The notes under the pieces are model-generated. The model saw nothing but the letters and a program-made list of their open reading frames with translations. It had not been told where the DNA came from and ran no database searches. A program made the translations under genes and the position numbers. DNA of 16,601 nt, from the UHGV virus genome UHGV-0088365; one strand, written 5' to 3'. This document shows positions 2,601 to 11,563 of the stretch, piece after piece. Each line of letters opens with the position of its first letter. The first letter of the stretch is position 1. The stretch is from a virus.

Positions 2601-3212
2601 TCACGCAGAACTCCTTCTAACCAAAAGAACGCCATCTTCAGAAACAACGTTGCAGGACTTCAGGTAATTCATTGCCTCTTTCGGTAATGGATTCTTTGGA
2701 TCGGCGTTTGCCAGGGATTTCGATAACCTCATGATAAATTTGATCATTACCTTCTGGCGAAGCTTGTGCTCATGAGATAAAGAAAGGTAATAGGAAATGG
2801 TATGGGCTAAACGCTCACGAAGCTGTTCTGTGCCGTGATATACAGCAGCGATATCACGCAGTGCATTGACCAGTTCCCGGTAAATATGCGGAGCAACCTG
2901 GCATTCAATGTTGGTTGGTGACTCATAAATTACATTCAGCCCCAGCTTTTGAGCCAGCTCGTGCTCTGCACGAGCGCCAACTGATTCCTCCCACCCCTTG
3001 AGCAAATAGACCGCATTAGCCGAACGCACCATTGCAAGGCAAATATCTATGTATTCGCTCTCGCAGAGGCCAGCAGGTAACAGCGCCGGATTCAGAACAA
3101 TATGCCCTACCTCCATCAGCTCTTTTGCTTTCGAAAAAAACGCTGTGCGGTTGTAGTCGGGATAACCAGTCATCGGCCCCGCGATGTAAATTTTCATAAT
3201 GCGTTTTGACAT
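2601..3212 (-). CDS. DUF4406-like (nucleoside 2-deoxyribosyltransferase-like fold) protein with an unrecognised C-terminal extension, about 203 aa
   Basis: ATG at 3212 (MSKRIMKIYIAGPMTGYPDYNRTAFF...VGHIVLNPALLP...) preceded by GGGGAAA; TGATG overlap with the upstream small ORF. The IYIAGPMTG...N...NP pattern is typical of the DUF4406 / deoxyribosyltransferase-like family. The track ORF 2601..3239 uses an upstream TTG. Confidence 0.65.
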   Translation of the reverse strand: MSKRIMKIYIAGPMTGYPDYNRTAFFSKAKELMEVGHIVLNPALLPAGLCESEYIDICLAMVRSANAVYLLKGWEESVGARAEHELAQKLGLNVIYESPTNIECQVAPHIYRELVNALRDIAAVYHGTEQLRERLAHTISYYLSLSHEHKLRQKVMIKFIMRLSKSLANADPKNPLPKEAMNYLKSCNVVSEDGVLLVRRSSA

Positions 3213-3367
3213 CAAAGTTTCCCCAGGAACGTTACGCAAAAGTTGATGAGAGCAAAGAGTTCAATGCCCAGCTCAAACAACGCCAGGACAGTGAAAAACA
3301 GGACATATAGCAACCCAATTTCTGAACCGGATTGCTGGTGGATTGCACTAATTGCGACAAGCATCAT
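3212..3367 (-). CDS. Small hydrophobic membrane peptide, about 51 aa, first gene of the leftward operon
   Basis: Not in the ORF track (too short). ATGATG at 3367..3362 preceded by AGGAGG; translation MMLVAISAIHQQSGSEIGLLYVLFFTVLALFELGIELFALINFCVTFLGKL; stop TGA overlaps the ATG of the DUF4406-like gene. Confidence 0.45.
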   Translation of the reverse strand: MMLVAISAIHQQSGSEIGLLYVLFFTVLALFELGIELFALINFCVTFLGKL

Positions 3368-3408
3368 GACCTCCTGATATAGCGTCTGAAAAAAGTATCT
3401 TCATTTTG

Positions 3409-5179: not shown

Positions 5180-6013
5180 TCACGAATCTCTCTGACAATT
5201 CAGAAACATAAACGCCCGCTTGTCTGTTAAATCCGTAACATAATACTCTCTCATGCCTGTAGGTTTTATTCTACGAGCATATACAAACTTATGAACTGGT
5301 TGTTTTTCCCCATAACTTACATCAGTCCTAAATTCATCAACCACGCTACCATCTTTTTCAGTTTCCTTTCTCACTAGCTGATTTTCTAATACAGGCTTTG
5401 ATTCGTCCATGCCACTAAAAGCATCCTGACCTGTGCTGTTGCCTCGGTTTCCGCGTGGCAAATCCCATGAAAAATAAGTGCCATAGTCAGTAATCACACG
5501 ATCCCATGTTCCGGAATCCCCCATATAGTTAGAACGCTCCCCCTTGTAAGTTACAGCCACCTTACAGGCATACGTTTCACCATTATTTTTTTTATCATGT
5601 CCAGCCATGCTTGCAGGAGTTGCAGGGGAATTATGAATAGATGCGCTTACATCATCCTGCGTTAATTCCTCAACTGGAGCAAATTCATATATGGGTGTGC
5701 CGAGGCTATTTAAATATAACTTATATCTAACCCTAAGCGCACTTCCATCAGAAAATTCATACGTTCCCAGACATTGGAGCTTATTTTTTTCTCTTATCTC
5801 ATTGATCTGATTATAAGCATCAATTACAGAGATTGCTTCCTGATCGTCCTTCAGCAGTTCATTATAATCATCGATTAACATCTGTCTGGTTTTAGGGGCA
5901 TTACAGTCAATTTTGCTAAAATCATAAGCAAAGGCAAATGTGGGAACAGAGAGAGCAACAACAGTAGCAAGTATTGTTGAGGAACATCTTTTTCCATTTT
6001 TTATAAAAAACAT
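5180..6013 (-). CDS. Secreted or periplasmic protein of unknown function with Sec signal peptide, about 277 aa
   Basis: ORF-track ORF 5180..6091 trimmed to the ATG at 6013 (GGAG 8 nt upstream), giving MFFIKNGKRCSSTILATVVALSVPTFAFA-YDF: basic n-region, hydrophobic core and AFA cleavage-type motif. Mature part is rich in Gly, Tyr and Trp. AT-rich. No family recognised. Confidence 0.7.
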   Translation of the reverse strand: MFFIKNGKRCSSTILATVVALSVPTFAFAYDFSKIDCNAPKTRQMLIDDYNELLKDDQEAISVIDAYNQINEIREKNKLQCLGTYEFSDGSALRVRYKLYLNSLGTPIYEFAPVEELTQDDVSASIHNSPATPASMAGHDKKNNGETYACKVAVTYKGERSNYMGDSGTWDRVITDYGTYFSWDLPRGNRGNSTGQDAFSGMDESKPVLENQLVRKETEKDGSVVDEFRTDVSYGEKQPVHKFVYARRIKPTGMREYYVTDLTDKRAFMFLNCQRDS

Positions 6014-6305
6014 TTCATTAACTCCATACTTTACCATCTTAGCCGCGAGCGCGGTCCCTAAAACCCTTAACTTCACTACACCGTCCTTCATGTAAACAAA
6101 ATGAGGTTTTATGTTATAAAAACAATCAACTTCATCAACATGATTTAGGCCAAGTTTCGGTCAAATAATAAAATCCTCAAAAAGTGGTTGACACTATTCT
6201 GGAAATCACAAACTGCACATAATCCATCGCGCTAACGGCTCCCGTTGAAGGTTCTTTTGACGATTAACTTTCAGCCGAAGCGCGGTAGGGAGTCATAACG
6301 CCAAA

Positions 6306-6333
6306 GCAGGCCGCCATGTGCGGCCTTTTTTTG
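6306..6333 (+). terminator. Intrinsic terminator or attenuator hairpin (GGCCGC-catgt-GCGGCC followed by TTTTTTT) 27 nt upstream of the next start codon
   Basis: Read directly: GC-rich 6-bp stem (7 with the flanking A-T pair), 5-nt loop, 7-T run at 6326-6332. It lies between a TTGACA hexamer at 6188 and the GGAGG/ATG of the 217-aa gene at 6360. Confidence 0.6.
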
Positions 6334-6359
6334 TATCCGTCATCCGTGGAGGAAGGACA

Positions 6360-7013
6360 ATGGAAAAGATCGCAATATTCAGCCTGACCACCAGCAAGCC
6401 TCAAATGCTCACTGCAATACTGAAAGACGGTGCTCTCATTATTAACGAAGTAAAACCCCTTCCCGCGTCAGCATTGGAGCAAAAGCAAAAAATTCCTCCA
6501 GCTATAGCAGCCCTGCGGAAAAGCAAATTTAAGGTACTGGTAGACGAAATTACGCCAACGATCTCCGCTGGCACCGGAGCAAGCCAGGTGACTCTCAAGA
6601 CCCGTCATGCCGATGGCAGAGCAGCAATCATCGTCGGGATGGAAAGATACAGAGAGTTAAAACTCCAGAAGCTATTATCCCTGCCGCAAAATAACAAAGG
6701 TGCTTTCGAAATCCCTGACTCCATCGTTGACACCGAATACAACGGTAACGGAGAAGAAGTCTACCGGGTGAACTGGCAGGATATCAGGCCGGAGCATATT
6801 TTGATGATCCTGTGTTGCTACGCGACCGTATACCACAATGTAGCCAGTGCGGATTACGTAGAGCAGATGACCGGTACAGTCGAGAAAGAGCAAAAAACAG
6901 GCATACTCGCTTCGTTCCTGTCCATTATTGGGCATGAAAAAGTTAAAGCAGGCACCTCCCAGCCAAAGACACTGACTGGGAAAGAAGTTGATGAAGATAC
7001 CGTGATACTTTGA
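6360..7013 (+). CDS. Hypothetical protein, 217 aa
   Basis: ORF-track ORF 6318..7013 trimmed to the ATG at 6360 (MEKIAIFSL...), which has GGAGGAAGG upstream. No family recognised. Confidence 0.7.
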   Translation: MEKIAIFSLTTSKPQMLTAILKDGALIINEVKPLPASALEQKQKIPPAIAALRKSKFKVLVDEITPTISAGTGASQVTLKTRHADGRAAIIVGMERYRELKLQKLLSLPQNNKGAFEIPDSIVDTEYNGNGEEVYRVNWQDIRPEHILMILCCYATVYHNVASADYVEQMTGTVEKEQKTGILASFLSIIGHEKVKAGTSQPKTLTGKEVDEDTVIL

Positions 7014-7148
7014 TCACATTAGTAGCTTTGTTAACTCCCTCAATACCAGGTAGAAGAGTAACAAAAATATTGACGCCAGTATTTGCGTGGTCAATGAAGC
7101 GTTCATAAACAGATCAATTAGCATTAATAATTCGAAGATAACATCCAT
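7014..7148 (-). CDS. Putative small hydrophobic peptide, 44 aa
   Basis: Not in the ORF track. ATG at 7148..7146 with GGAG about 8 nt upstream; translation MDVIFELLMLIDLFMNASLTTQILASIFLLLFYLVLRELTKLLM; its stop abuts the stop of the convergent 217-aa gene. Confidence 0.3.
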   Translation of the reverse strand: MDVIFELLMLIDLFMNASLTTQILASIFLLLFYLVLRELTKLLM

Positions 7149-7341
7149 GTCATTCACTCCGTTTAATTTTTAATCTAATGCCAGCAAATGAAGCTGGCCC
7201 CCGCATAAAGATTAATGAAAGTCACTTGTCACCAGTGAGGGGATTTATGAACCACATCCCCCTGAACTGGTGGCCTGTCTGTTTCTCGCATTTCACACCC
7301 TGCATACAGTTTCCCCCAGGTTATGACTGAGAGGCTTTGTT

Positions 7342-7671
7342 ATGGGCTATAGCAGACTCGACGATAGGTACATTGAAGACGATATTTTTCGTGCGCTGTT
7401 TCACCAGGAAATGATTAAGAGGGTATCGGAGTATCACTCTGATAATTTCCAGTACACGATAAAGATTGATGAAGTATATCGTTCAGACCTTGCAGCCTAC
7501 AGGGCGTATGGCAATGCAGATTTGCGCTGGGTATTCCGGGTGCTGGTGGGCCATGAGTCAGAAATGGAAGAAATGCCCGCAGGGACCACGTTAACTCTTC
7601 CTGATGTGGCATGGCTGAGGAACAAGATCCGTGATTACGCAAGCGCGGAACCGGAGATAGAAAATGCCTGA
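7342..7671 (+). CDS. Hypothetical protein, 109 aa, with weak resemblance to the LysM-like phage tail protein X family
   Basis: ORF-track ORF; its stop overlaps the next start by 8 nt. The segment YGNADLRWVFRVLVGHESEMEEMPAGTTLTLPDV loosely resembles the P2 gpX pattern (...YG...V..VL..N.G......LP.GT.v.LPDV) as I recall it; weak. Confidence 0.6.
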   Translation: MGYSRLDDRYIEDDIFRALFHQEMIKRVSEYHSDNFQYTIKIDEVYRSDLAAYRAYGNADLRWVFRVLVGHESEMEEMPAGTTLTLPDVAWLRNKIRDYASAEPEIENA

Positions 7672-9897: not shown

Positions 9898-10236
9898 TCA
9901 GGCTGCTTTTTTATTCAGGTTCCGCTGAGAAATAAATTTTTCAGCAGTATTGATACGACTTAACTCTTCCTGAACGCGCATATCATTTTCGACTTCCCAC
10001 AGATCTACTGCGGTCTGAAGATTAATCCAAAAATCTACAGAAGTATCGAATGCTTTTGCCAGGCGATATGCCATATCCATCGTTAGCTTACGATTGTTAT
10101 TAACAAGAGCACTTACGGTGTTACGATGAACATGAAGTATTTCTGCTAACTCGTTGATCTTCAGCTCTAACGGCTCCAGGTATTCGTACAGCAGGATATC
10201 ACCTACGGTCGTCGGTTTTCTGGTTGCCTGTTTCAT
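9898..10236 (-). CDS. higA: HigA-family antitoxin (XRE-type HTH), 112 aa
   Basis: ORF-track ORF; PTTVGDILLYEYLEPLELKINELAEILHVHRNTVSALVNNNRKLTMDMAYRLAKAFDTSVDFWINLQTAVDLW matches the HigA/VapI HTH antitoxin pattern; it lies downstream of a HigB-like toxin gene (toxin-first order typical of higBA). Confidence 0.8.
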   Translation of the reverse strand: MKQATRKPTTVGDILLYEYLEPLELKINELAEILHVHRNTVSALVNNNRKLTMDMAYRLAKAFDTSVDFWINLQTAVDLWEVENDMRVQEELSRINTAEKFISQRNLNKKAA

Positions 10237-10306: not shown

Positions 10307-10609
10307 TTAGTATTTGTGAGGGTCGAGATACAAGTCCTCGGCCTTTCCGTTAACCCACTTAAAAATTAACCTATATTGCTTATTCACCCTTACTGATGAA
10401 TAGCCATTTAGCTTCCCTGACAGTTCCTCATACCGATTACCTGGTGGTGATCTTAAATCCTTACAGGTAGTTGCGGCATTGATAATGTCCAACTTCCGTG
10501 ACAATGTCATATGAATATCAGGAGGTATCTTTCTATGTGGTGTTGAAAATTCAAAAAAATCATCAAGCCACGCATCCCTGAAATCCTTTATGTTAATTTT
10601 TTTGGTCAT
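10307..10609 (-). CDS. higB: HigB-like toxin (plasmid-maintenance killer protein, RelE/ParE superfamily), 100 aa
   Basis: ORF-track ORF; C-terminal half GNRYEELSGKLNGYSSVRVNKQYRLIFKWVNGKAEDLYLDPHKY follows the HigB pattern (...G.R.G.YS.RVN..YRL.F...NG.A..L...DYH) as I recall it; upstream GGAGGA. Confidence 0.8.
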   Translation of the reverse strand: MTKKINIKDFRDAWLDDFFEFSTPHRKIPPDIHMTLSRKLDIINAATTCKDLRSPPGNRYEELSGKLNGYSSVRVNKQYRLIFKWVNGKAEDLYLDPHKY

Positions 10610-10682: not shown

Positions 10683-10771
10683 TTTTATGAATTCCCCCTC
10701 CTTCATCCAAAATCACAATCTCCAGAAAATCTTCCTTTCGATACCTGACAGATCGACCTTTGAGGATGCTT

Positions 10772-11563
10772 ATGGGCCGTTTTGACGAATGGTTTGCTGA
10801 CGATGCAAACCTGGCAAGTAAGGAGTCAGAACATGACAGCACGCAGAGAGAAACGCCAGCGCCGATTGAAGCGAATGCAGGAGGCGCGCCGGAACATGGC
10901 AATACCGGTTCGGATTCATTCAGCATTCTGGAAGAGCAACCCGCCGCCCAAGCTGATAGCCATGATAATTTTGCTGATAGCAACGGTGGCCTTACTCCGG
11001 ATGCTGGCGAATCAGATATAGCCATACTTCCATCTTCCCTGGCTGGCAGAGAACCGACTCCACAGTTAAAAGCACGCTATAACGGGCATAAAGCCTTTAA
11101 CGACCAAATCCGCGCAGACTGGATGCTGATTATTGAATCCAGCCCAGACGCGTTTCAGGCTCTCTTATATCGACCAGATGTTGGCACATATGGGGTAGTC
11201 AGCGACGAAACAGGAGAAGAGTCATTCACTGAACTGGATAACAACCAACGCGAACTGACTTACCAGGAACCTGAAATCGTTTATGTGCTGGATAACCCTG
11301 ACGGGCGTGACTCTTTCCATGCGATTGACGCAGACGGTGAGCAGGATGGCTTAACCGATGATGTTCTGATTCTGCGTATTGCAGCAAATAACGTCCCCGT
11401 CGGCTCAATTCTTGAATGGAATGAAGAGATGGTAAACGGCGTAGCGCGCCGCTGGTGGTACGTGCACCGTATTTTTAGCTACGGCACACAGCATGTTGGT
11501 TCGCTTTACTACTGCATACCTGCCAGGAATTTTGATACGACTCAAAACGGAGTGATCGAATGA
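10772..11563 (+). CDS. Hypothetical protein with acidic, low-complexity N-terminal half, 263 aa
   Basis: ORF-track ORF 10760..11563 trimmed to the ATG at 10772 (GAGGA 5 nt upstream); ATGA overlap with the next gene. No family recognised. Confidence 0.7.
   Translation: MGRFDEWFADDANLASKESEHDSTQRETPAPIEANAGGAPEHGNTGSDSFSILEEQPAAQADSHDNFADSNGGLTPDAGESDIAILPSSLAGREPTPQLKARYNGHKAFNDQIRADWMLIIESSPDAFQALLYRPDVGTYGVVSDETGEESFTELDNNQRELTYQEPEIVYVLDNPDGRDSFHAIDADGEQDGLTDDVLILRIAANNVPVGSILEWNEEMVNGVARRWWYVHRIFSYGTQHVGSLYYCIPARNFDTTQNGVIE

Follow-up and report, generated by a model that had tools for sequence, protein, structure and literature searches.

The mat region of a D6-like phage-plasmid

Phage-plasmids of the P1 family are common among Enterobacterales and frequently bear resistance genes. 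The window analysed here, a stretch of 16,601 nucleotides of viral DNA (UHGV-0088365), stems from a D6-like phage-plasmid of this family and is 97% identical to phage D6. The features of its mat region are collected in Table 1.

Behind a GGAGG Shine-Dalgarno (SD) sequence, as an earlier sequence-only reading had described, lies a 217-aa gene. That reading had left the protein unrecognised; it is a homologue of phage P1 Mat, and the gene is named mat (maturation control) in the D6 annotation. In tblastn the protein shows 34% identity to Mat of phages P1 and P7 over 95% of their length, and it matches the PHROG family phrog_1837, and the gene keeps its place beside genes 26 and 25, the order mat-26-25 being retained in all clades. 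In phage P1, mat has been reported to be essential. The literature searched holds no description of the function of Mat. A contig search with a single Mat protein returned a near-identical locus only. The structural model of Mat resembles a terminase nuclease domain, which led to the rejection of Mat as a chaperone of the RNA described below.

On the opposite strand, a 44-aa hydrophobic reading frame (orf77 of D6) runs towards mat, and the tail-to-tail arrangement reported before is exact: its stop codon (7014-7016) abuts that of mat (7011-7013). This ORF appears to be a genuine coding gene. Of 31 distinct variants, 29 keep the reading frame intact, 21 of the 34 sites that vary are in the third position of codons, and the C-terminal half is hydrophobic, a pattern of a small hydrophobic protein under purifying selection. 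This is one trait of the type I toxins with which the ORF had been compared earlier. Its homologues are close ones only and all reside within D6-like elements; a diverged homologue adjoins a HigB/HigA-like pair. The ORF matches the PHROG family phrog_38362. The scan of the window recognised no promoter- or terminator-like site for the ORF or for an antisense partner, and it is only a possibility that a read-through mRNA of mat would be antisense to it. A link between the ORF and the RNA upstream of mat was ruled out by four clades that carry the RNA without the ORF.

Table 1. Features of the mat region (window coordinates; strand as given)
Feature	Position	Strand	Remarks
Conserved TTGACA	6188..6193	+	24 nt upstream of the -10; too distant for a sigma-70 -35
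Late-class promoter	6206..6223	+	box TCACAAACT, 3 nt, -10 CATAAT (6218-6223); motif counts
Structured small RNA, ~105 nt, predicted three-way junction and intrinsic terminator	6229..6332	+	covariance model, covariation
P1 closing helix, 5' strand	6229..6243	+	outer 6229-6234/6296-6301; inner 6237-6243/6288-6294
Site A', P2 5' arm (6247-6253) and loop CUUUUGAC (6254-6261)	6246..6261	+	complementary to gene 23 mRNA +1..+16
P2 3' arm, partner of 6247-6253	6266..6272	+	5/7 pairs double-changed
P3, small GC hairpin (6274-6277/6283-6286)	6274..6286	+	contains GCGCGG 6280-6285, possible second pairing site B'
Intrinsic terminator	6308..6332	+	stem 6308-6314/6320-6326, U7 tract 6326-6332; scan, cross-clade pairing
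SD GGAGG and mat gene (217 aa)	SD 6348-6352; mat 6360-7013	+	transcribable by terminator read-through only
44-aa hydrophobic ORF (D6 orf77)	7014..7148	-	SD GGAG 7157-7160 (+ strand coordinates), 8 nt upstream of ATG
Second late promoter of the same class, before gene 26 (7342-7671)	7293..7310	+	motif match; D6 equivalent at 71030

A late-class promoter and a terminator upstream of mat

The TTGACA hexamer on which the earlier description was built is present and has no -10 at a spacing of 16-18 bp. It was ruled out as a -35 by the spacing of 24 nt to any -10. TTGAC(A/G/C) recurs 24-26 nt from the -10 in five of six clades; the Enterobacter clade lacks it, as does the gene 7 late promoter. The statement that a -10 is missing holds for the hexamer and not for the locus, since CATAAT is a usable -10 and forms part of a phage late-type promoter. 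The motif of this class, TCACANNCT-N3-NANNNT, has three matches in the window against 0.13 expected, and the strict form occurs eight times across the D6 genome, where by our own arithmetic about 0.7 would be expected. All eight are co-oriented with late operons; seven are located 45-60 nt upstream of protein-coding operons, and the eighth precedes the RNA. Two other late promoters were read in the window, and neither has a terminator between promoter and gene. D6 encodes a homologue of lpa, and the late promoter LPmat is annotated at the equivalent place in phage P1. The promoter before the RNA is presumably Lpa-dependent, and its spacing predicts a transcription start at ~6229-6231.

A strong terminator hairpin, formerly placed at 6306-6333, is confirmed as the top-ranked terminator-like site of the scan. 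The GC-rich stem has seven pairs and a loop at 6315-6319, and 97.5% of its cells are paired across clades. Between the last U and the mat ATG there are only 27 nt, which leaves no space for a separate mat promoter. As the sequence is laid out, mat mRNA can arise solely through read-through of this terminator.

A conserved three-way junction

The structured RNA proposed between promoter and terminator, previously given as about 110 nt, is borne out at ~105 nt. Its helices covary, and among ten relatives the block 6188-6335 is far more conserved than both flanks and the 5' end of mat; for an Enterobacter plasmid, the blastn alignment is restricted to 6206-6337. In the closing helix P1, all six pairs of the outer part and five of the seven pairs of the inner part have changed on both sides, as in the replacement of CCC/GGG by UUU/AAA in L218. 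Hairpin P2 has a loop of 12 nt bearing a nearly invariant UUUUGAC. The helix of P3 shows little covariation, almost none, and the invariance of its GCGCGG across clades arises by construction, the collection patterns having demanded GCGCGG.

Over the whole alignment, which was fitted to the model structure and thereby favours it, 90.6% of cells are paired and compensatory changes are found in 19 of 31 pairs. None of 500 shuffles reached the observed pairing values, and slid controls were 34-52% paired. Of eight representatives folded one at a time, five have P1, P2, P3 and the terminator as their minimum-energy fold. For the window itself, the fold of lowest energy has a differing outer pairing, 6224-6233 with 6279-6289, which was set aside: it is not shared by other clades and would take in bases upstream of the predicted start. 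As the fold z-score alone is modest (-2.0), conservation is the weightier argument against chance.

With the covariance model R1, the RNA was located before mat in each of the clades tested. It is found there in at least seven clades (Escherichia/Salmonella, Enterobacter, Klebsiella, Leclercia, Pantoea and metagenomes), and it precedes every mat examined with at least 49% identity to the Mat of the window; phages P1 and P7 and a Vibrio relative gave no match. Among 5426 complete E. coli genomes, 101 have the element on a plasmid of ~90 kb. A megablast of the locus of the UUUUGGC clade, described in the next section, against plasmids returned no match. On Klebsiella conjugative plasmids the RNA is perfectly conserved inside a relic block, and the sole record examined (L013) has no capsid gene nearby; the RNA might have a second role, or be merely recent.

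No Rfam family matches the window at gathering score, and permissive scans also gave no relevant match; the weak hit to isrK (14.7 bits, E 2.7) covers the terminator portion only. The RNA is without annotation in every record seen and without description in the literature searched, and it looks like a previously undescribed structured RNA. It would be a well-supported family missed by Rfam and by current annotation pipelines.

Complementarity to the capsid mRNA

In D6, site A' and the 5' end of the leader of gene 23, which encodes the major capsid protein, form 16 contiguous Watson-Crick pairs. Gene 23 is outside the window, ~18 kb away, and this duplex is the best non-self match in the D6 genome (-29.6 vs -25.6 for the next). 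The complementarity is preserved by compensatory changes in six clades, for example GGUUC/GAACC in D6, GGUAC/GUA(A)C in the Klebsiella type, and GGAAU/AUUCC in Pantoea, and the changes in the Enterobacter clade are wobble-compatible. With cognate RNA and leader drawn from the same contigs, the pairing is present in every clade, and the longest cognate runs measure 10-16 nt as against 5-10 nt between different specificity groups. The capsid site (site A) has a fixed position in every clade: it starts exactly 7 nt downstream of the -10 in the late promoter of the capsid gene. In Pantoea, of which half the plasmid was scanned, the capsid site is not the top duplex (-19.7, with random matches at -20 to -22), so that position and covariation, rather than energy, carry this case.

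In one clade the loop UUUUGAC is switched to UUUUGGC. A GCCAAAA leader was predicted beforehand for this clade in place of GUCAAAA. The capsid leader on the same contig indeed carries GCCAAAA at +1, where 13 contiguous pairs can form with the RNA; the search pattern demanded GCCAAAAAAC...CCGCGC, and the independent evidence consists of the location and the contig only. The hexamer CCGCGC follows site A by 2-4 nt in all capsid leaders. It never varies, which makes a covariation test of this putative site B impossible. Within the window, TCGTCAAAAG with up to two mismatches is no commoner than in shuffles. A cis target at the start of mat was also ruled out as chance, the loop complementarity found there by eye being a 7-nt match in the Klebsiella clade only. 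Judged from these alignments, the loop of the small RNA (sRNA) and the start of the major capsid mRNA look as if they have evolved together.

These observations bear on two explanations that need no trans-acting sRNA. The first regards the terminator as a mere insulator or by-product and the RNA upstream as functionless, in the manner of lambda 6S between PR' and tR'; the succession of promoter, short RNA, strong terminator and late gene does resemble that region. We find this scarcely credible for an RNA that is so much better conserved in sequence than its surroundings, whose helices are maintained by the 19 compensatory pairs, and whose loop co-evolves with the capsid leader. The short distances at the other seven D6 promoters, and the two terminator-free examples in the window, argue in the same direction.

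The second explanation is a cis-acting mat leader, either an attenuator or a switch responding to a protein or ligand, in which the junction serves as a sensor that sets the passage of polymerase. The capsid complementarity would then be secondary or would itself be the signal, with the capsid mRNA pairing to the nascent mat leader. The constant linkage of the element to mat and the dependence of mat on read-through are in keeping with such a leader, and many riboswitches are likewise laid out as a closing helix with two hairpins, followed by a terminator. We nevertheless hold it to be very unlikely. The Rfam riboswitch and leader families gave no match in the window or in six loci of other clades, which speaks against the riboswitch-like leader suggested earlier. 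In every clade the predicted folds keep the junction separate from the terminator, and inspection of alignments and folds found only a 4-5 bp GCGG/CCGC alternative between the two, with none conserved beyond that. Furthermore, the most conserved single-stranded bases co-vary with another mRNA, which is unexpected for a ligand sensor. Attenuation, a riboswitch and a separate small RNA had been left side by side in the sequence-only reading. The late promoter, the covarying fold, the terminator and the co-evolving target favour the last; on inspection, attenuation seems to apply only in the trivial sense that mat needs read-through.

The capsid leader and the direction of regulation

A hairpin is predicted in the capsid leader of all clades, with energies of -11.6 to -17 kcal/mol. 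The consensus has 10 pairs, of which two covary, and its outer stem lies on GUG. In the predicted structure the inner GCCC/GGGC stem holds an SD-like AGGG and the outer stem pairs with the GUG start codon. The sRNA site would overlap the 5' arm of the outer stem by 3-4 nt. On co-folding the outer stem is predicted to be lost, whereas the prediction for pairing at site A alone retains the inner SD hairpin.

Because the sRNA site overlaps the hairpin that is predicted to hide the capsid SD and GUG, translational activation of capsid is probably the mechanism, the likeliest of those considered. The same sRNA acting on the same target could also have a negative effect or an effect on timing, decay of the capsid mRNA or blocked ribosome loading limiting or delaying the capsid. 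The pairing evidence is identical for repression and for activation, most known base-pairing sRNAs repress, and an inner SD hairpin that persists when site A is paired would suit repression. We nonetheless judge a negative effect to be rather unlikely: a repressor adds little to a leader whose hairpin already hides the SD and the GUG, the capsid is the most abundant late product and requires high translation, and the binding site is located upstream of the ribosome-binding site, where it shares bases with the strand hiding the start codon.

Proposed mechanism

We consider it likely that 6206-6332 is an independent late sRNA gene in front of mat, whose product pairs with the capsid mRNA and opens its translation. 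According to this proposal, the late-class promoter would initiate near 6230, presumably under Lpa, and the RNA would adopt a three-way junction composed of a long P1, P2 with its UUUUGAC loop, and the GC hairpin P3. Most transcripts would stop at the U tract and give a free sRNA of ~105 nt, and the fraction that reads through would be the sole supply of mat mRNA. The free sRNA would pair, P2 loop first, with about the first 16 nt of the gene 23 late mRNA, whose leader would be kept in the conserved hairpin, with SD and GUG hidden, until the 5' arm of the outer stem is bound. The GCGCGG of P3 could also bind CCGCGC, which overlaps the inner stem. In the complex, sRNA and leader would once more form a three-way junction about P1, the capsid ribosome-binding site would open, and translation would be activated in an "anti-antisense" manner.

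A stricter form of this model is possible, and we advance it tentatively. The sRNA may constitute an obligatory late checkpoint, with no capsid protein made until it opens the locked leader through the intermolecular three-way junction, and the sRNA/leader specificity groups GUCAAAAGAACC, GUCAAAAGUAAC, GUCAAAAAUUCC and GCCAAAAAACC may act as a compatibility code for virion production. If so, the specificity groups would decide mutual help or exclusion among related phage-plasmids in one cell.

Late gene control in P1-family phages is thought to rest on the activator Lpa alone. An RNA layer on the major capsid gene would, if true, be new for these phages, and the sRNA reading would account for the seemingly paradoxical strong terminator before mat. 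The co-evolving pairs would also provide ready-made orthogonal sRNA/leader sets.

Comparison with known systems

The mat region of phage P1 (Omat, Pmat, LPmat) has the same gene with a late promoter in front. It differs in its leader of ~20 nt, which lacks an RNA element and a terminator, and in the additional C1 operator. The capsid leader of phage P1 likewise lacks the GUCAAAAG and CCGCGC sites and has self-pairing of CUCUUCC with GGAAGAG instead.

The lambda PR'-6S-tR' region is similar in having a short terminated transcript between the late-operon promoter and the first late gene, which requires read-through. In lambda, the Q antiterminator acts at the promoter to bring about read-through, and 6S RNA is not known to have a function of its own. 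The promoter before mat, by contrast, belongs to the phage's common late class, and it precedes a conserved, structured RNA with which a target co-evolves.

The C4 antisense RNA of phages P1 and P7 (RF01695; the group of P4 CI and N15 CA) is likewise an RNA of the P1 family, and at 77 nt it is close in size to the ~75 nt junction. In C4 of phage P1, as folded here and with a2/b2 as annotated, a long closing helix also surrounds a junction whose hairpins expose bases that pair with a short site in an mRNA leader, by which translation is controlled, and the sRNA loop, with its UUUUGAC(A/G), is similar to the motif UUUGACAG targeted by C4. The RF01695 model itself gives no match in 6050-7400 at E<=10 or in six loci of other clades at E<=1. 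C4 is excised from the leader of icd-ant, the operon that encodes it, with RNase P forming the 5' end; its complementary sites lie over the ribosome-binding site of the adjacent downstream gene, which it represses in cis. The sRNA upstream of mat has its own late promoter and terminator and a target 18 kb away, and is expected to be an activator; inspection by eye found no conserved complementarity of its loop to the start of mat. The sites of C4 are colinear with the RNA, whereas the two candidate sites of the sRNA are arranged around the junction.

The activating sRNAs of enterobacteria are trans-encoded, end in a Rho-independent terminator, and pair with part of a 5' leader to free a ribosome-binding site hidden in a hairpin. 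The same anti-antisense logic as that of DsrA, RprA and ArcZ on rpoS, GlmZ on glmS, and RyhB on shiA is predicted for the sRNA upstream of mat. Three features of the DsrA/rpoS type, namely a promoter and terminator of its own, an exposed seed that co-varies with the target, and a leader predicted to mask the ribosome-binding site, can be recognised in the D6-type sequences and folds. Unlike DsrA-type sRNAs, the D6-type RNA is phage-encoded, is placed under a late promoter, and has the phage's own major capsid gene as its target; the pairing begins at +1 of the mRNA, and a three-way junction takes the place of the usual linear seed.

The sRNA element and its distribution

The predicted structured RNA of ~105 nt upstream of the 217-aa gene mat (6229-6332, plus strand; hereafter the sRNA) defines a new family of structured sRNAs in P1-like phage-plasmids. 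The family is well supported, and its target, at the 5' end of the major capsid mRNA, co-evolves with it. Sequence identity of 5900-7400 is 97-98% both to D6, a P1-family phage-plasmid, and to ~100 plasmids of ~90 kb found in Escherichia, Salmonella and Shigella. Homology with a near-identical plasmid places an icd-like gene at ~3160-3375; despite its presence, the window yields no Rfam C4 RNA at any position. Two icd-antirepressor loci occur in D6. Genes for a RelE/ParE-type toxin (10307-10609) and a HigA-type antitoxin (9898-10236), both on the minus strand, lie between tail gene blocks, and the arrangement is the same in D6.

Features of the sRNA-mat region (positions in the window)
Feature	Position	Strand	Description or basis
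sRNA promoter	6206-6223	+	box TCACAAACT, 3 nt, CATAAT
Same motif before gene 26	7293-7310	+	motif match
Same motif before gene 7	10713-10730	+	motif match
P1			long closing helix, outer and inner part; single-sequence folds
P2			hairpin, loop holds UUUUGAC; single-sequence folds
P3			small GC hairpin; single-sequence folds
Spacer, then terminator	3' of P1-P3		single-sequence folds
217-aa ORF	6360-7013	+	D6 annotation: orf78, 'similar to P1 gene mat'
44-aa ORF	7014-7148	-	D6 annotation: orf77
simB-like gene, divergent	5180-6091 (upstream of mat)	-	D6 annotation
P1 genes 26 and 25 homologues	downstream of mat		D6 annotation

A structured leader ending in a terminator had been proposed in the sequence-only reading. 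The terminator is borne out as a GC-rich hairpin of 7 bp (6308-6326) with a U7 tract (6326-6332). The thermodynamic signal of the leader is present but modest (z = -2.0), and comparison with relatives was therefore relied on instead. Among 10 relatives, ~6188-6335 is far more conserved than both flanks and the start of mat, and the blastn alignment to an Enterobacter hormaechei plasmid is restricted to 6206-6337. Homologues lie directly upstream of mat in Klebsiella-type plasmids and phages, in Leclercia and Pantoea, and in many viral and metagenomic contigs; a homologue also precedes 5/5 further mat homologues looked up (49-66% protein identity). The element is single-copy and plasmid-borne in all of 101 complete E. 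coli genomes, where it is mostly unannotated and in some records appears as a 'hypothetical protein'. It is absent from P1, whose mat leader is only ~20 nt after operator and promoters, and was not found in the Vibrio relative. All clades were scanned against Rfam and matched no family. No description was found in the literature searched, which left most subscription journals outside, and an earlier mention is possible.

A relic block, ref - sRNA - mat - 26 - 25, lies beside an arsenic operon on large conjugative IncF plasmids from Klebsiella and Raoultella. Besides the plasmid L013, the one relic-block record examined, which shows no capsid gene nearby, a further 142 plasmid records share the block's sRNA region at 99% identity or more.

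A predicted late-type promoter

The promoter motif has three matches in the window versus 0.13 expected. Since the pattern was taken from these same sites, it was retested on the whole D6 genome, where simple arithmetic predicts ~0.7 strict matches and 8 were found, 8/8 co-oriented with a late operon. Seven of the eight lie 45-60 nt upstream of lysozyme, portal, ddrB, R-S-U, pmgB-sit, gene 7 and gene 26, and the remaining one is the sRNA's own promoter; the D6 capsid gene is preceded by a relaxed match. On the strength of this motif before late operons, an lpa homologue encoded in D6 and the annotation of LPmat at the equivalent place in P1, the sRNA promoter is taken to be a late, Lpa-type promoter, from which transcription would start near 6229-6231. 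The D6-type motif reads TCACANNCT-N3-NANNNT, and the P1 box differs (AAGTGACTT, at LPmat and LP23).

The TTGACA hexamer noted earlier is present at 6188-6193. As TTGAC(A/G/C), 24-26 nt upstream of the sRNA -10, it is kept in 5/6 clades and is not common to other late promoters; as a -35 of the sRNA promoter it was rejected, being too distant from the -10.

Structure of the sRNA

Eight representatives were folded singly, and the common architecture is the minimum-energy fold in the Enterobacter, Klebsiella, both Leclercia-type and one Pantoea-type (L160) sequence. A covariance model built with this structure from the D6 and Enterobacter clades was then used to align 24 sequences. Standard pairs occupy 90.6% of cells in this alignment versus 80.0 +/- 0.8% in shuffles, two-sided changes occur in 19/31 pairs, and 0/500 shuffles reach any of the five observed measures. 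P1 provides an example, in which CCC/GGG, elsewhere invariant, is swapped for UUU/AAA in one clade; P3 shows almost zero covariation. Fitting to the model biases the alignment towards the model's structure. Nevertheless, pairing falls to 34-52% when partners are slid by 1-3 columns, and these controls, together with the single-sequence folds, argue that the structure is real.

Probable pairing with the capsid leader

The P2 region was scanned against the D6 genome. Of the non-self duplexes, the best joins 6246-6261 (UGAAGGUUCUUUUGAC) to GUCAAAAGAACCUUCA by 16 contiguous Watson-Crick pairs; GUCAAAAGAACCUUCA starts 7 nt past the -10 of the gene 23 late promoter, and gene 23 is the major capsid gene. 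By simple arithmetic, ~4e-5 such 16-mer matches are expected by chance in 2 x 91 kb.

When sRNA and capsid leader from the same contig or plasmid were compared, every clade had a complement to the sRNA in the same place at the leader start, and the differences between clades are compensatory: GGUUCUUUUGAC in the sRNA faces GUCAAAAGAACC in the leader in the D6 type, GGUACUUUUGAC faces GUCAAAAGUA(A)CC or (A)CU in the Klebsiella and Leclercia types, and GGAAUUUUUGAC faces GUCAAAAAUUCC in Pantoea. Variation within clades is wobble-compatible (C to U facing G, A to G facing U). The longest runs reach 10-16 nt in cognate pairs versus 5-10 nt between different specificity groups. One further clade has UUUUGGC in the sRNA loop, which predicted the leader start GCCAAAAAACC; the 89.9-kb contig that carries this sRNA proved to have it at +1 of its capsid leader, giving 13 contiguous pairs. 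As the search pattern required GCCAAAAAACC, only its placement and its contig count as independent evidence. The start of gene 7 (10775-10784) has GUUUUGACGA, which resembles the sRNA loop itself and not its complement; this likeness is probably due to chance.

Attenuation, a riboswitch-like leader and a separate small RNA had been offered as readings of this region. The sRNA's own promoter, conserved covarying fold and co-evolving target support the separate small RNA as the correct one of the three, and the interpretation is partly right.

Predicted effect on capsid translation

The same hairpin is predicted in all capsid leaders (-11.6 to -17 kcal/mol). Its inner stem, GCCC/GGGC, includes an SD-like AGGG, and in its outer stem (C/U)UC(A/G)C faces the GUG start codon plus two following bases; the RNAalifold consensus has 10 pairs, 2 with compensatory changes. 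The start-codon-masking strand shares its first 3-4 nt with the sRNA site, and predicted co-folds of sRNA and leader lose the outer stem. The simplest reading is anti-antisense activation, in which sRNA pairing would open the leader and thereby activate capsid translation; the main alternative is that the same pairing represses or destabilises the capsid mRNA.

A second contact that might accompany activation involves the invariant GCGCGG of P3 (6280-6285), complementary to an invariant CCGCGC of the leaders, which sits 2-4 nt after the P2-complementary site and overlaps the inner stem. The two sites are not colinear; on geometric grounds, the junction from which P1 extends could also carry both intermolecular helices.

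The sRNA target is missing from the P1 capsid leader (L216 1775-1830, minus strand), which opens instead with CUCUUCC, the complement of the SD region GGAAGAG of the same leader; P1 may also lock capsid translation via this different pairing. In the Pantoea capsid leader, the inner hairpin GCCCUGAAAAAAGGGC (L165 28335-28350, minus strand) is nearly identical to lambda boxB.

mat and the 44-aa ORF

GGAGG is situated at 6348-6352 and the mat ATG at 6360, as first read. The U tract ends just 27 nt short of this ATG, and transcription of mat therefore necessarily depends on reading through the terminator, which may be plain leakage or regulated. By inspection, no convincing conserved antiterminator was seen in the sRNA-mat leader.

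The stop codons of mat and the 44-aa ORF do abut at 7013/7014. The 44-aa frame is intact in 29/31 distinct variants, 21/34 variable sites fall at third codon positions, GGAG lies 8 nt upstream of its ATG, and the variant in L143, whose N-terminal half has diverged, keeps frame and length. These features indicate a real gene, which appears to encode a small membrane protein in a variable cargo slot and is unrelated to the sRNA. The type I toxin role proposed for it may apply, although it is unsupported. Only close homologues were found; the ORF is absent in the Enterobacter, Klebsiella, Leclercia, Pantoea and Vibrio relatives examined, and in relatives without it mat abuts or overlaps gene 26.

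The slot lies between mat and gene 26 (7014-7341) and holds the 44-aa ORF in the window, a HigB/HigA-like pair adjoining the diverged copy in L143, and RelE/HigA in E. fergusonii (L003). It measures 60 bp in Enterobacter, and there is none in Klebsiella, Leclercia, Pantoea and Vibrio.

Comparison with known RNAs

The sRNA loop UUUUGAC(G/A) (6254-6262) resembles the P1 C4 target sites a1/a2 (UUUGACAG; L215 1256-1262, 1424-1430), and the capsid-leader site resembles the C4 a' segment (CUGUCAA). A C4-like RNA of the same phage could conceivably take part in cross-talk.

The C4 RNA of P1/P7 is the closest relative in kind. Both RNAs belong to the same phage family and combine a closing helix and hairpins with short exposed pairing sites. 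In contrast to C4, the sRNA fails the C4 model, is differently located, comes with a late promoter and a terminator of its own, and has a distant target gene. In mechanism, given the activation that we infer, its nearest likeness is to the DsrA/rpoS-type activating sRNAs.
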